Source: a virus
Lineage: Duplodnaviria > Caudoviricetes
DNA length: 64,000 bases
IMG/VR virus record: IMGVR_UViG_3300006201_000008
Location: 1-64,000 of that record
Strand: one strand, 5' to 3'
Part shown: positions 50,701 to 63,798 of the stretch, piece by piece
Position numbering within the stretch: the first letter of the stretch is position 1
Layout of the letters: every line of letters starts with the position of its first letter
The notes under the pieces: model-generated
What the model was told of the DNA's origin: nothing
The model's input: only the letters and a program-made list of their open reading frames with translations
Database searches by the model: none
Program-made: the position numbers and the translations under genes

Positions 50701-52717
50701 CTTTTACGGAATCACCCGTAATGCCAAAATCTTTTATAAGAGAAGATTCATCAATAGAAGTAAAAGTTCCATTTTTAAGTTTCTCAAGATATGACTGTAA
50801 AGTTGATATTTTTTCATTATACTTATCAATTGCCTCTGGGTCTGCAAGTTTTGTTAATGCCTCTGAAACAGATGTAATTTCTGTTTCTTTTGCAGCTTGC
50901 TCTTTGGCTTCATTAATTTTCGCAATTAATTCATCCCATGATTTTATGCTATCACGACTAACTGAAAATGCAAATTGTAAGTCTTCATTACTTAGTGTAT
51001 CAACTAATTCTTGTCCGAATGCATCAACTAATTGTTGATAATTTTCAGATTTTATCAACCCCATTTTCTCAAGTAATGCGATTAAATTTTCAACAGTAAG
51101 ATTGTACTCATCTGCAACTTTTTTTAATTCACTATAAGCATCTATTTGTTCCTGTGTCGCTATATTCGGGTTGAAATTCAGAATATCTTCCGAAGAAAAT
51201 GTAGTAATACCATCTGATTTTCCATCGATTTTATCTAAAGCATCAGTAACCTTATCTTTTAATCCGTCTGTATTTGGTTCAAAATCTAATTCAAAGCTCC
51301 ATTCACCGAATATCTGTTGCATTTCTGGATACATTGATCTGAAATAATCAGCAACATCATTGTCAGAATTTTTAAAAGCTAAAGAAATTGCTGATTGTAA
51401 AGTTTCAGAATATTTTTCACCTGCCGCTTTGATAGATTTTTCATCTCCAGAAGTGACAGCTTCGTTATATGATTCTTTTGCTTTATTTATCTGATTAAAT
51501 CTATCATCATATCCAATATTGTCAGAATTATCTAATATTTTTTCATATAGTATATATGTTTTATATGAATCTTTGTATGCTTTTAATGTTTCATCCATTA
51601 CATTCGCAATTCTTGTAATGTCTGATTCGAATTCATTTGAAACTTTAAAATTTTTCGACAATTCTTGTATTTCCAGTAAATCTTCATATATATCGTTAAG
51701 ATTGCCTTTAAGGATGAATTTTTCGGTGGATGGAGAAATATCGAATGTTTTAGAAATCAAATCGTCTAATGTTTGATTGCCAGTTTTTTTGATCTCATAA
51801 AAAGCATGTTGCATACTGTTAACCATTTTATCTATATTGCTTTCAGTTGACATATTCAGCATATCCCATGCACCCTGAAAATCAAATTCGGTTAACTTAA
51901 AAAATGCTTCTGTCAGATTGCCGCTTGAAAAGAAATCTAAAGCAAATTGCCCGAAAGTCTTATCATTAAAATTATTTTTCCATTCTTGATATTGTCTTTC
52001 TGAAAGATAATCTAATGCATCTGCCTGTCCATTAATAGCCTGTGTAACAATATCAATAGTATCTTTTTCAGTACCGAATTTTTTAATTAATTCATCCTGA
52101 ACTACCATTAAATCTTTTCGTGCCTGTGTGACATCACTAATGGAAGAAGAATTATCATTTATTGTTTCATATAACTCTTTGATTTTTTCTTTATACCCAT
52201 TAATAGAAGATTCTGTTTCCTTGAATTCAGAAGATAATTCTTTTGCGCTGTTTAACAAATCTTCATTTGCACTGATCATTTGATTTATGAATGATAATGC
52301 TTTTGATATAATAAGAGATAAACCAACGCTTGCAAGTACATTTCCAGCTATTGAAAGACCTTTCATTACAGCCATGTTTGCTTTTGCAGCTATAGTTGTT
52401 GTTTTAAGTCCTTTTGTTAGTTCGTCCGCACTTTGTCCTGCTAATAATGCATTCCGTGTATATTGTTTAGCAGCAACCGAACAATTCACCATATTTTCGC
52501 ACCAAGCTTTACTTGTACTGACACCATTTTTTAAAGCATTTGCGAAATTTGTTATTCCTTTAACATCATTTTGTGTTAATTTATCACCACTAAAAATGGA
52601 ATAAATTATACCTTGTCCAGACTTTATATTTCGTTTCATAGTATGTAAAGTACTATTAAAAATAGAAATACCTTTCGCTGCTCCCGTAGCATCGTCGTAA
52701 ATTGTTTTGAATATCAT
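44759..52717 (-). CDS. tail tape measure protein with NlpC/P60 peptidoglycan hydrolase domain (possibly only the C-terminal part of a split gene)
   Basis: About 2650-aa helical protein upstream of Dit; LPYIWGG...ADCSGFTQ...HVGIYIGGGQFVH; in-frame ATG at 52717 (MIFKT) inside the repeated element. Confidence 0.92.
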   Translation of the reverse strand: MIFKTIYDDATGAAKGISIFNSTLHTMKRNIKSGQGIIYSIFSGDKLTQNDVKGITNFANALKNGVSTSKAWCENMVNCSVAAKQYTRNALLAGQSADELTKGLKTTTIAAKANMAVMKGLSIAGNVLASVGLSLIISKALSFINQMISANEDLLNSAKELSSEFKETESSINGYKEKIKELYETINDNSSSISDVTQARKDLMVVQDELIKKFGTEKDTIDIVTQAINGQADALDYLSERQYQEWKNNFNDKTFGQFALDFFSSGNLTEAFFKLTEFDFQGAWDMLNMSTESNIDKMVNSMQHAFYEIKKTGNQTLDDLISKTFDISPSTEKFILKGNLNDIYEDLLEIQELSKNFKVSNEFESDITRIANVMDETLKAYKDSYKTYILYEKILDNSDNIGYDDRFNQINKAKESYNEAVTSGDEKSIKAAGEKYSETLQSAISLAFKNSDNDVADYFRSMYPEMQQIFGEWSFELDFEPNTDGLKDKVTDALDKIDGKSDGITTFSSEDILNFNPNIATQEQIDAYSELKKVADEYNLTVENLIALLEKMGLIKSENYQQLVDAFGQELVDTLSNEDLQFAFSVSRDSIKSWDELIAKINEAKEQAAKETEITSVSEALTKLADPEAIDKYNEKISTLQSYLEKLKNGTFTSIDESSLIKDFGITGDSVKELTEKIQNLMNTELKSVIKQIDKVINTQNLDETTKKALIALKESLTGVNKEAQDLNNNLSFKLTNNPLADIQKLSQGLDQLDKIYADILDKEDFDWSSILNNDGFKEAFSSYTEEYDNFINTVSNSPNDINACQDAFNKLTAAYIKGSGVLSEVTEATKAGTVAMLKQMGVSNAAAIVEQALIENEKMLEAQKYATAHGCDDLRKATYEEINALIAEGKTSEEVLKYLAKLALEKWELSKTELKTQADCDNLLKLAVQAGATTKQIKNLKNAMADLNTFDYTNPVGSAIGNATSNFFEKAAEKIPAIKKTKLYKNFAKNKKKQDDAQSAVNDIVSGIEENLRKALEIPEFKVDFTGGTTTKDTRERLAKEKEKEDKKKEETAENIDFIEIKLNNLIDTASKAKDKISDLLSFGAKKKQTQKAIEATTKALEAEYKAMKQYAKFAETFSADAAKETVETVTEDVSNAVSDAVSNIASSTAGVVNDAMQYVGKLPYIWGGTSLTNGADCSGFTQQLYRAYGINLDRTAQAQYDQNIGVKVTKDQLQPGDMVFFNGYKGAGGVGHVGIYIGGGQFVHEPGSGQTAKVSYLSDRKDFVGGKRFGSINNTPSSSASSTVSNDTSSTTTTTYTKVVPGIDSKTLAHYQKLVREGSFDIETITNEKLKNAIKSYQEWYDKMKSCRDKIDELNNDLKELYKTMAQIPIEKRDKNVETLDTRLDILNSKRENISAVIVDPKKYDSTKKTLKSSKTDVKKGLKGLRTKAQMKSAGLEKTDIDTIKKQMKNGQTIPAKILDKITDGAFYEQCKQYNDAVYEHSQYAKTMRTAGDSIKKFNTISDQILSAEKSKTKQFKTAYNDVSKSYGKSLDNVKSKGNKTRKAFGSKKFGLSDADIKRIKSCINAGKQIPTDLMAQLESQSVYDSCVEYNKAVMENEAFREQLDNARFDLQKQQQAETAARLQNKTEKHQNIADKASAKMERNEVLAENADTPKKKNKYLSQNLDLLQTEYKHLIKIAELENDSVKAAKLRAELEKETADIIEQQFQNISDYYSARRDKISDKESLQDVRYENAQVDVKKKNDILNVKTRFATERNAESEQEYTDTAKLFNSNRTDAKKAVNKVKKLSSSDKDKILKLMESKEEIPESLMDKVAKLDPDAYQKLLSYNDSLDWLDKAALNKKISNEELIKTKRENEIQKHQNVADRAQDKMDKNDALSEISTSASEQNKYEKENIKYLNTQYKHLLEIAKLHEDDVEYARLEAEQQAKIAEAYKAMFDNVQTEFENKISLISNDISDLDNEIKKVEASGRLVDASYYNHKISFENESLAKLKEEETSLVEQLKNIQMFSPAWYECQDAIQSVQNAQADSLSKVKEYKDAINAIADTIQNDIVDAFHEVTDEAELLITLLGDDLSDEDTGALTKDGLAVLSLYVSQMNICKDAAESFHKEINSMQDALDSGTLSFIDANGIQREYASVFELKKAIKDFYSSYRDEIKHVYDYESKIVDMMIKKYQSELDYLKELIEKKKAELDAEKDLHDYAKSLKEQTDNINSLRKQIAALKGDTSKETESRIQKLQSQLKEAESSLDDQEYDRYISDQQDMLDNLYDEYAKLIDDVMKDHDRLLREGLDLFAQTASDVQDVIKITAEEHGYEITAEMEKIIASIEGMGHLDSYLGVGGTVTQSLSDIVNEVHNAYVGITAEFQGLKDAIASIGYQGKYDTTDTDHTDYSINDSSSNTGSANNSGNTNSPSNIDVSKLPNMDSTGLATKRFIEDLLRNGTNADYDPKKASSLNKYIYGKYGSALTVDEMAKLSEYLGFNYTSKQLATENPNHSKRKMKMLEKLQAYGFSNGGIVPDDALKVRDFGIQPASNGDNRLVALKPKESVFNEKQTKMIQEYVNKGPDFESLRKLTPMLDKMMKMPETQLRPSDTSVKIEYDNVNINLPNVMNYEDFMCKMQKDHDFEKMINYIVSSQMGFGTRFDKYFVNYRH

Positions 52718-52780
52718 ACTATTATTATTTTGTGTTATGTGGAGTAACACATATATATTGTAGATTTGTGGAGAATCTAC
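52703..52780 (-). repeat. twin-hairpin/MIFKT element, copy A (at TMP start)
   Basis: TGTTTTGAATATCATACTAT; TGTGTTA-tgtggag-TAACACA; GTAGATT-tgtggag-AATCTAC. Confidence 0.9.
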
Positions 52781-52809
52781 TTGAATTATAATTATAGCAG
52801 CGGTATAAT
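52781..52809 (+). promoter_or_regulatory. sigma-A promoter for the zinc-ribbon gene
   Basis: TTGAAT-17 nt-TATAAT. Confidence 0.75.
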
Positions 52810-52843
52810 TATAAACATAATAAAATGTGGGGGTATTTGTCTT

Positions 52844-63290: not shown

Positions 63291-63295
63291 TTATG

Positions 63296-63324
63296 TTGAA
63301 ATATGTGGTTTAATCTGATATAAT
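63296..63324 (+). promoter_or_regulatory. sigma-A promoter
   Basis: TTGAAA-17 nt-TATAAT with extended TG. Confidence 0.75.
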
Positions 63325-63369
63325 TAGTCCAATTAAATGAATGAGAAATAAAATATTTTACTAAGGAGG

Positions 63370-63798
63370 ATGTATTCATTGAATAAGGAAATTTATTTCC
63401 GCAATATAATTCTTTCTGGAACAAAAGAAAATAATAAAAAAGTACTAAATATTATTCCAGGGTGGAAATTTAAAACAATAAATATACAGGGCGTTATTCA
63501 AAATTGTATTGAAAATGAAAAATTAAATGTACGAGTTTTATTTGATTTAGATATAAAACAAAGTACAAATGTTGTTCCAATTAAATCGTCCATCGGTGAT
63601 ATTTATAATAAATATGAAGATGGATATGATCTGAGTAAAAATCAAAAGAGTAATATAAAGGATGATATACTATATTTATTATGTCTACAAATAAATAAAA
63701 TAATAAAAGAATATAATGAAAACAATGATGATATTGAAAATACAATAGATGTATTATGTGGCATCGTTCCAAGTGTATATGATTGTGAACAACAATAA
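63370..63798 (+). CDS. hypothetical accessory protein
   Basis: ORF with AAGGAGG RBS (probable TTG start at 63379), own promoter and terminator. Confidence 0.7.
   Translation: MYSLNKEIYFRNIILSGTKENNKKVLNIIPGWKFKTINIQGVIQNCIENEKLNVRVLFDLDIKQSTNVVPIKSSIGDIYNKYEDGYDLSKNQKSNIKDDILYLLCLQINKIIKEYNENNDDIENTIDVLCGIVPSVYDCEQQ

Follow-up and report, generated by a model that had tools for sequence, protein, structure and literature searches.

T4-type phages carry PeSL elements, mobile regulatory cassettes that pair a σ70-like promoter with a stem-loop and occupy about 50 sites per genome (PMC2839356; PMC4122927). According to the first of these reports, the stem-loop is an attenuator that precedes the early promoter, in many cases overlapping the -35 or ending shortly before it (PMC2839356). 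Here we describe a locus of similar outline in IMG/VR virus record IMGVR_UViG_3300006201_000008 (G000), in which copies of a short module, made up of a 20-nt start box, tandem hairpins with a conserved loop and a predicted σ70-like promoter, are distributed through an island of accessory genes between two giant tail genes. The window analyzed is the first 64 kb (64,000 nt) of this 96,069-nt record, the completeness of which is estimated by CheckV at ~40%. We read the repeated modules, or cores, as copies of the 5′ junction and control module of the tail gene that were probably spread by recombination between related phages, and assign this reading a probability of about 0.6.

The resemblance to PeSL extends to four properties. 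In both cases short repeated modules pair a σ70-like promoter with stem-loops, a hyperplastic region of accessory genes lies beside late virion genes, the stem-loop sits next to or over the -35, and the modules mark end-points of insertions, deletions and replacements between related phages. In the same sources, however, PeSL stem-loops are G/C-rich terminators, whereas here the stems vary freely and a 7-nt loop is invariant. The hairpins of the present locus also come in tandem sets of 1-4 or more, its module includes a 20-nt box at which an essential tail gene also begins, the promoter pointing in the opposite direction, and it occupies one locus rather than ~50 sites per genome, in a phage that is not T4-like and in other host and phage lineages. 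A PeSL-like layout leaves the invariant loop unaccounted for. Our literature search retrieved the PeSL papers and no description of this module, the loop sequence itself not having been a search term.

Three other systems invite comparison. In the orphan toxin-immunity arrays of Rhs and CdiA proteins, as here, a long conserved gene has one hypervariable end, and displaced earlier ends persist alongside it, each starting from a short conserved junction and accompanied by small neighbor genes. The present locus likewise contains fragments that run from a conserved junction and derive from alternative ends, although with inverted polarity, as these are 5′ ends lying upstream rather than 3′ ends lying downstream. 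Most stubs here have only 7-17 codons and therefore cannot serve as a reservoir of alternative domains; their neighbors are defence and Zn-ribbon genes that re-assort against the alleles, not cognate immunity genes, and family searches with the variable N-terminal part of the tail protein hit no toxin family. When integrative islands accrete in tandem at tRNA genes and gene ends, a duplicated piece of the gene stays behind in direct orientation with every island. The present locus also has direct repeats of one end of an intact gene, units in series and a working fragment next to the gene, but no integrase was seen, the repeat is at the 5′ end and comes with regulatory hairpins, and unit order is not conserved between relatives. 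Integron attC arrays share with it cassettes separated by hairpin sites that are conserved in structure rather than sequence; they differ in that neither an IntI-like gene nor attC core sites were found in the record, the cassettes are multi-gene and run on both strands, and the loop is the conserved part of the hairpin. The island works like PeSL shuffling and like orphan-module accretion, is a member of neither family, and is not an integron.

The start module and its hairpins

The module was found at the head of a tail gene on the minus strand of the window, which has a GC content of ~29%:

40926-41711, minus strand: Dit, in a tail block that also comprises a 1449-aa tail protein and a 2663-aa open reading frame (ORF)
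44759-52717, minus strand: giant tape-measure-like tail gene, the 2663-aa ORF, which spans 44759-52750 from a GTG at 52750; the start-box ATG is at 52717

The product of the 2663-aa ORF has an NlpC/P60 domain (PF00877), matches phrog_4211 and phrog_329, and weakly resembles a tape-measure family. A 1271-aa ORF on the minus strand just past the end of the window (68900-72718) carries a PhageMin_Tail domain, which is typical of tape measures, and two giant tail genes thus flank the studied region. The same split between two tape-measure-like genes is seen in relatives, where the upstream ORFs measure 867-1286 aa. No close relatives of the N-terminal 406 residues of the tail protein were found in IMG/VR, and megablast against a phage collection gave no match.

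A repeated core had been reported in a preliminary description of this DNA, and its existence was confirmed: the 13-mer TGTTTTGAATATC occurs exactly five times, always on the plus strand, over a span of 52703-63234, at positions 52703 (A), 58547 (C), 61684 (D), 63148 (E′) and 63222 (E). Only these five exact copies and one site with a single mismatch (34196) are present in the entire record, and the reversed-pattern control has 0 occurrences. The cores are built as follows:

52703-52722, minus strand: core A start box, 20 nt, sense strand ATAGT-ATG-ATATTCAAAACA
52731-52780: core A hairpins 1 and 2, with 7-bp stems TGTGTTA/TAACACA and GTAGATT/AATCTAC and loop TGTGGAG
52781-52809, plus strand: core A σ70-like promoter, TTGAAT-17-TATAAT, directly after hairpin 2 (consensus match only)
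55545-55625: core B, decayed and reduced to GAATATCAT plus two TGTGGAG sites with poor pairing
58547-58617: core C, with an ACG start box (58547-58566), two hairpins (loops TGTGGAG and TGTGGAA) and a 15-codon stub on the minus strand
61477-61751: core D, with start box 61684-61703 and hairpins 61710-61730 and 61735-61751
63148-63290: E′/E composite, with E′ at 63148-63160, an inverted copy, the E box at 63222-63241 and hairpins at 63250-63268 and 63270-63290
63296-63798, plus strand: core E promoter and a 142-aa gene with no assigned function; promoter at 63296-63324, TTGAAA-17-TATAAT with TG (consensus match only)

Read on the minus strand, core A gives MIFKTIYDDATG, the opening of the 2663-aa ORF. 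Core C reads from its ACG as TIFKTFDNDLYKCIE and then a stop, which follows 15 codons and not, as first described, directly after the K. The reading of core D, MIFKTFNSDLDK, opens a 73-codon ORF (61698-61477, minus), and core E reads MIFKTLQK in an ORF of 32 codons. E′ is an extra copy absent from the preliminary list, in which ATGgATATTCAAAACA is read in another frame (MDIQN) and starts a 93-aa ORF.

A search of IMG/VR and genome records with the 20-mer, allowing R and W at two places, identified the box in 55 IMG/VR stretches and 62 genome stretches, the record titles of which are mostly Lachnospiraceae, Acetatifactor, Roseburia or Eubacterium plexicaudatum; several belong to cultured Lachnospiraceae. 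An ORF of 200 codons or more starts at 55 of the 83 distinct cores. The tail proteins encoded at the cores all open (M/T)IFKT and then split into several unrelated N-terminal modules; deeper in, the alleles are related (residues 9-606 of the window protein align with 84-660 of another allele at 51%), and the N-termini are mosaic. Each of the ~182-kb genomes with 100% CheckV completeness has a single exact copy of the 13-mer. In the two genomes examined closely (G006 and G010), there is a core at the tail gene and an inverted second copy a few kb away, before a gene for a 72-78-aa membrane protein that has its own Shine-Dalgarno sequence and ATG ~25 nt after the box. Because the box also precedes this gene, it is a nucleic-acid element and not merely a peptide. 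To judge from these contexts, the core belongs natively to the 5′ end of the tail gene, in a broad family of phages and prophages represented in Lachnospiraceae genome records, and consists of the 20-nt start box, tandem hairpins and a putative σ70-like promoter directed outward; the divergent gene outside this promoter is usually a Zn-ribbon gene.

The loop heptamer TGTGGAG occurs at 10 sites in the window, against 3.69 +/- 2.0 expected, and 8 of the 10 lie at 52738-63283 on the plus strand. Cores A, C, D and E each have two stem-loops, with stems that differ between copies. Over seven stem pairs in 129 distinct 25-nt units, a set that includes three hits in Zn-ribbon coding sequence that are not hairpins and were counted as misses, 81.6% of cells were paired, compared with 42.7% in shuffled units and 33-48% in slid registers, and the covariation score was 0.916 versus 0.208 in shuffles. 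At each inner pair of the stem the four Watson-Crick types are about equally common, whereas T-G-T-G-G-A does not vary. Five or more stem pairs enclose 44 of 47 loop motifs inside cores versus 158 of 895 elsewhere (three genomes). In host genomes, 3-16 tandem-loop pairs at hairpin spacing were counted per genome, versus 0-1 for the reversed-pattern control, and the hairpin-like pairs fall within these phage loci. Comparative evidence that the hairpins have been selected for structure is very strong. An Rfam 15 scan of 52000-64000 returned no family, the sole hit being a chance snoRNA match (E = 0.66), and covariation together with an invariant loop strongly supports a structured element without an Rfam match. 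Of the whole module, the conserved-loop hairpins are the part most deserving of experiment.

Hairpin number per core ranges from 1 to 4 or more, the tandem set lying on the upstream side of the box. The loop is TGTGGAG in one phage clade and TGTTTGAAT or GTTTGAG in its sister clade. One 7-bp stem with its flanks (TGTGTTA/TAACACA) encloses TGTGGAG at 52731-52751 of the window and TGTTTGAAT in G009 (L071). The sister-clade loop TGTTTGAAT is also nearly identical to the first 10 nt of the start box (TGTTTTGAAT).

σ70-like sites scoring at least 9 of 12 matches, a measure of consensus match only, are present in 60 of 77 cores. The best site lies at or after the last hairpin in 36 cores, overlaps the hairpins in 18 and precedes them in 6, the remaining 17 having none. 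Short, AT-rich stems are the rule, and 39 of 77 last hairpins have a T-rich tail behind them versus 10 of 60 non-last hairpins (background, 13.5%); a last hairpin with its T-run would attenuate plus-strand transcription ahead of the promoter. The preliminary description had placed a separately promoted, divergent plus-strand gene at copies A, C and E. This arrangement stands for A and E, and C has the gene (58654) with a less clear promoter. RNA contigs from two studies cover 58981-60317, 60787-61272, 61593-62282 (across core D, which one contig spans at 61593-62222) and 62405-63119, and a variant RNA contig covers core E; the tail gene has no RNA contig, in data that consist of contigs and show presence only, so that missing cover is no evidence of silence.

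ACG replaces ATG in 26 of the 83 distinct cores (long genes, 15 of 55; short genes, 11 of 28), and selection is therefore not simply on the start codon. Thirteen of the 15 long ACG genes have no upstream in-frame start, 6 have no start within 60 codons downstream, and one ACG core is the only core in a 155.5-kb genome that is complete and has terminal repeats. The ATG/ACG alternation heads a long and otherwise intact structural gene, the complete genome included, and the protein start is directly testable. ACG-start tail genes include those at L009, L011, L014, L040, L104, L105 and L110 and in G016 (complete, with terminal repeats). Three other accounts of the box were considered. A σ70 promoter inside it, with TA[T/C]GAT as -10, would explain the ACG and fit the membrane-protein gene, and was not adopted because the -35 spacing is not fixed and the tail gene lacks a downstream start codon in at least 6 ACG cases. 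Termination-reinitiation at the TAG within the box was rejected, the upstream in-frame codon of core A being a stop. A general late promoter was likewise rejected, as the 13-mer with loop hairpins is found nowhere else in the 96-, 162- and 183-kb genomes.

An inverted copy of the box lies 20-30 nt downstream in 9 of 28 stubs versus 1 of 57 long genes. In core E (window 63183-63241), pairing of the box with its inverted copy gives a long hairpin that covers the start; a third, direct copy permits alternative pairings. Inverted copies also occur at L063, L098, L100, L095, L120, L136 and L154.

Displaced starts, breakpoints and cargo

The stubs had been proposed to be former 5′ alleles of the tail gene. 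This holds for D (MIFKTFNSDLDK) and C (TIFKTFDNDLYK), which match the first 12 codons of long ORFs elsewhere that open MIFKTFNSDIDK and MIFKTFDNDIDK, respectively; none of 63 long N-termini is a counterpart of E. In other stubs, 7-17 codons of known alleles persist. The stubs are displaced gene starts, since they preserve codons 6-17 of alleles found elsewhere at full length. Relatives retain displaced 5′ fragments of 7 codons to 980 aa, including fragments of 510, 705, 980 and 492 aa, each with its own core and hairpins. The G015 host chromosome has two loci (L189 and L190) ~30 kb apart, each consisting of an array and displaced tail-gene fragments of 492-980 aa; these are possibly two prophages.

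The closest relatives are G001 (78% identical in the C-terminal part of the tail gene) and G011 (83%). This part is conserved in both, and the N-terminal ~2.2 kb of the window gene has no match in either. Homology between the window and G001 begins exactly at the box, with 94% identity over 63222-63340 and 82% over 52691-53116. The active tail gene of G001 bears E-type hairpins that are 94% identical from the first base of the box, and its A-type hairpins and A-like Zn-ribbon gene follow a stub, MIFKTFNNDLDKMF, that ends in a stop. This arrangement argues that hairpins, promoter and cargo move together and re-assort against the gene side at the box. Two further clean cases of crossover at the box were found among 93 cores, and of the 4278 pairs of these cores, 5 have discordant left and right sides, 3 of which involve hairpin cores. 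Modules thus lie at end-points of insertions, deletions and replacements between relatives, though some breakpoints are elsewhere.

Two predictions of the preliminary description found no support in these comparisons. One is co-variation of cargo with the tail-gene allele, as the hairpin-promoter-cargo units re-assort against the gene side at the 20-nt box; the other is a strictly ordered record of acquisitions: module order differs among G000, G001 and G011, and core B, the most decayed in the window, is second-closest to the tail gene. Decay increases monotonically with distance in only 3 of the 5 arrays of at least 3 cores (G001, G011 and G014), and not in this window or in G012.

The units between the cores have the following content:

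52844-53209, plus strand: double Zn-ribbon protein, 121 aa, divergent from the tail-gene core, with a like gene in relatives where read
53446-55373, minus strand: insertion sequence, 50% GC, with a 495-aa DDE transposase at 53642-55129
55396-55545, plus strand: small hydrophobic ORF, 49 aa, with a strong Shine-Dalgarno sequence
55955-57394, plus strand: Mrr_N and GmrSD_N (DUF262) protein, 479 aa, an NsnA/PD-T4-2_A-like defence candidate
57740-58353, minus strand: type III toxin-antitoxin-like unit, with ToxN/AbiQ at 57740-58231, a terminator-like hairpin at 58253-58278 and two 38-nt repeats at 58278-58353
58654-59148, plus strand: Zn-ribbon protein, 164 aa, with a C-terminal domain paralogous to 52844-53209
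59273-61487: cargo with no assigned function, 61 aa and 337 aa (minus) and 246 aa (plus)
60534-60683, plus strand: Zn-ribbon fragment, 49 aa
61828-63202: small ORFs with no assigned function, 66 aa and 43 aa (minus), 69 aa and 92 aa (plus) and the 93-aa E′ ORF (minus)

The cores thus punctuate what is, from its predicted products, a hyperplastic island of defence and accessory genes. The ToxN/AbiQ protein matches PF13958 at 2.5e-46 and AbiQ at 2.7e-37, and its unit has the ToxN-family protein, short tandem repeats and terminator-like hairpin of ToxIN/AbiQ; the 38-nt repeats were not listed by TRF and had no Rfam hit. Beyond the window the record encodes an NsnA-like protein and a PDC-S60-like phosphoesterase. 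For the Zn-ribbon protein there are 509 unnamed homologues and only 7 viral loci, from which no function is derivable, and the small ORFs of 59273-63202 have no family match. The locus shows where and how widespread gut phages associated with Lachnospiraceae store and swap defence genes. The store lies among the tail genes, and the junction that it occupies also restores the beginning of an essential gene; the module is easily recognised, which makes cassette turnover traceable across gut metagenomes.

The insertion sequence is a recent insertion. It is missing from contigs of two DNA runs from other samples that are otherwise identical across 50288-64000, with a joint of 53445 to 55374. The empty site is also present in G011; the joint has a 5-nt overlap, and the element measures ~1.9 kb and has ~10x the depth of the phage. 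Just upstream of the NsnA/GmrSD-like gene, positions 55901-55945 contain a perfect 22-nt tandem duplication with the Shine-Dalgarno-like AGGAGG, and the start region of that gene, GGATATCATACTATG, shares 13 of 14 positions with the start box read on the plus strand.

Proposed recombination and alternative explanations

Repeats, hairpin covariation, breakpoints at the box, displaced 5′ fragments and defence-type cargo are all observed. In the process that we propose, related phages would recombine at the short conserved box and within the tail gene, inserting or swapping units of hairpins, promoter and cargo, sometimes with a new 5′ gene segment, and the previous gene start would be pushed outward as a stub. 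Such recombination would be homologous or rely on short homology rather than being site-specific.

Several observations weigh against this account. At only 20-30 nt, the box is a short substrate for exchange of the RecA type, and the inverted box copies at stubs are not predicted by simple crossover. Some differences between relatives end away from cores, as in the 6.6 kb at 55704-62320 that is extra relative to G011. Except for the insertion sequence, the window has the same arrangement as the contigs of the two DNA runs from other samples. Rearrangement between cores, for which the preliminary description proposed to look, gave no solid joint in contigs of four runs, the low-depth joints not being at cores, and the only core-to-core joint, 52730 to 63271, rests on 21 letters in one contig. 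Given this collinearity and the weakness of the sole joint, ongoing exchange is without support. Finally, an invariant loop with free stems is superfluous for a terminator or for homologous recombination and points to a factor that reads the loop. Transition-type mismatches, by which the acting strand might have been assigned, are symmetric (GT+TG 15 versus AC+CA 19; a separate look had only 6 informative cases), and favor no particular strand or molecule.

The box and tandem hairpins may together be a new kind of structure-read site, an idea to which we give a low probability. It could be a folded-DNA capture site through which defence cassettes are loaded at the 5′ end of the essential tail gene and its start is rebuilt, or a new leader RNA bound by a phage factor that supports ACG-tolerant initiation without a Shine-Dalgarno sequence on a giant virion protein.

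A dedicated, structure-specific recombination system is unlikely, although several properties of the locus are those it would produce. Hairpins and box would be folded sites like attC, HUH or Xer substrates, at which a phage or host enzyme captures cassettes at the tail-gene start and regenerates that start, the newest cassette being nearest the gene. Folded single-strand sites typically combine a conserved loop with stems that covary strongly, symmetry of mismatches between strands is expected of a DNA-level element, breakpoints fall exactly at the box, and one hairpin has kept its stem while its loop was swapped between clades (TGTGGAG here, TGTTTGAAT in G009). The units have direct repeats at their edges, and 3 of 5 arrays decay monotonically with distance, but core B is decayed though near the gene, and the array is stable and collinear in contigs from other samples. 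Moreover, both strands carry cargo, hairpin number differs from core to core, and boxes like the R″ and R′ of attC are absent from the sequence, which was read directly. Apart from the transposase of the insertion sequence, 101 protein queries (75 distinct ORFs) from the 96-kb record identified no integrase or recombinase family, an absence that does not extend to the whole phage because the record represents ~40% of the genome.

We also consider it improbable that the module is a portable cis-regulatory element and nothing else, that is, an RNA leader, operator or promoter module that is reused before several genes and bound by a phage factor, such as the neighboring Zn-ribbon protein, with the copies being working control regions and not relics. 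Working copies would be consistent with the box upstream of the membrane-protein gene, which has its own translation signals, with E′ using the box in another frame and D heading a 73-codon ORF, and with the tolerance of ACG, which extends to the sole core of the complete 155.5-kb genome. RNA contigs on cores D and E with none on the tail gene, and hairpins that abut the -35 of the divergent promoter, fit as well. At C, however, the minus-strand side is dead (an ACG and a 15-codon ORF), and the ToxIN unit below has its own promoter-like site. Core B is decayed. The codons 6-17 of genuine tail alleles in stubs, and the truncated copies of 492-980 aa in some relatives, are relics. The module is found nowhere else in the 96-182-kb genomes and is therefore not a general promoter class.

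The proposal that the loop heptamer is a Chi-like polar motif of the host, forming an AddAB-dependent hot spot or degradation shield beside the box, is very improbable and was rejected, for although TGTGGAG is present at 1.5-3.7x its reversed control in 5 host genomes, is strand-biased along contigs and points every loop in the same direction relative to the tail gene, its 53:12 distribution over 400 kb of the G013 chromosome (skew 0.815) ranks only 213th of 4117 7-mers and is ordinary for G-rich words at a GC skew of 0.15, Chi needs no hairpin, and the other phage clade has a different loop (TGTTTGAAT). In the same sequence (G013:C1:1-400000, L169-L188), GGGATGT, which lies within ACATGGGATGTA, is strand-skewed 106:3 and ~2-fold over-represented, and is a candidate polar motif of these Lachnospiraceae.

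Other features of the record

DNA nearly identical to that of the record is present in mouse-gut metagenome runs from 13 studies. Nucleotide-metabolism genes occupy 1-17 kb of the window, and a Rep3 initiator and ParA/ParB are encoded at 24.6-28.2 kb. The Rep3 and ParA/ParB genes suggest that this large phage may be a phage-plasmid. With a tRNA route to ACG initiation in mind, two tRNA genes were located in the rest of the record and zero in the window, none of them initiator-like, a result with no bearing on that route. The product of 18171-21689 (minus strand) is a secreted-type protein of 1172 aa in which Listeria-Bacteroides repeats are combined with a thermolysin (M4) peptidase domain. 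Outside the island, 13 of the 14 positions at 28374-28387 agree with the start box in its sense orientation, inside a promoter-like site (TTGACA-18-TATGAT) upstream of a 366-aa gene at 28420.

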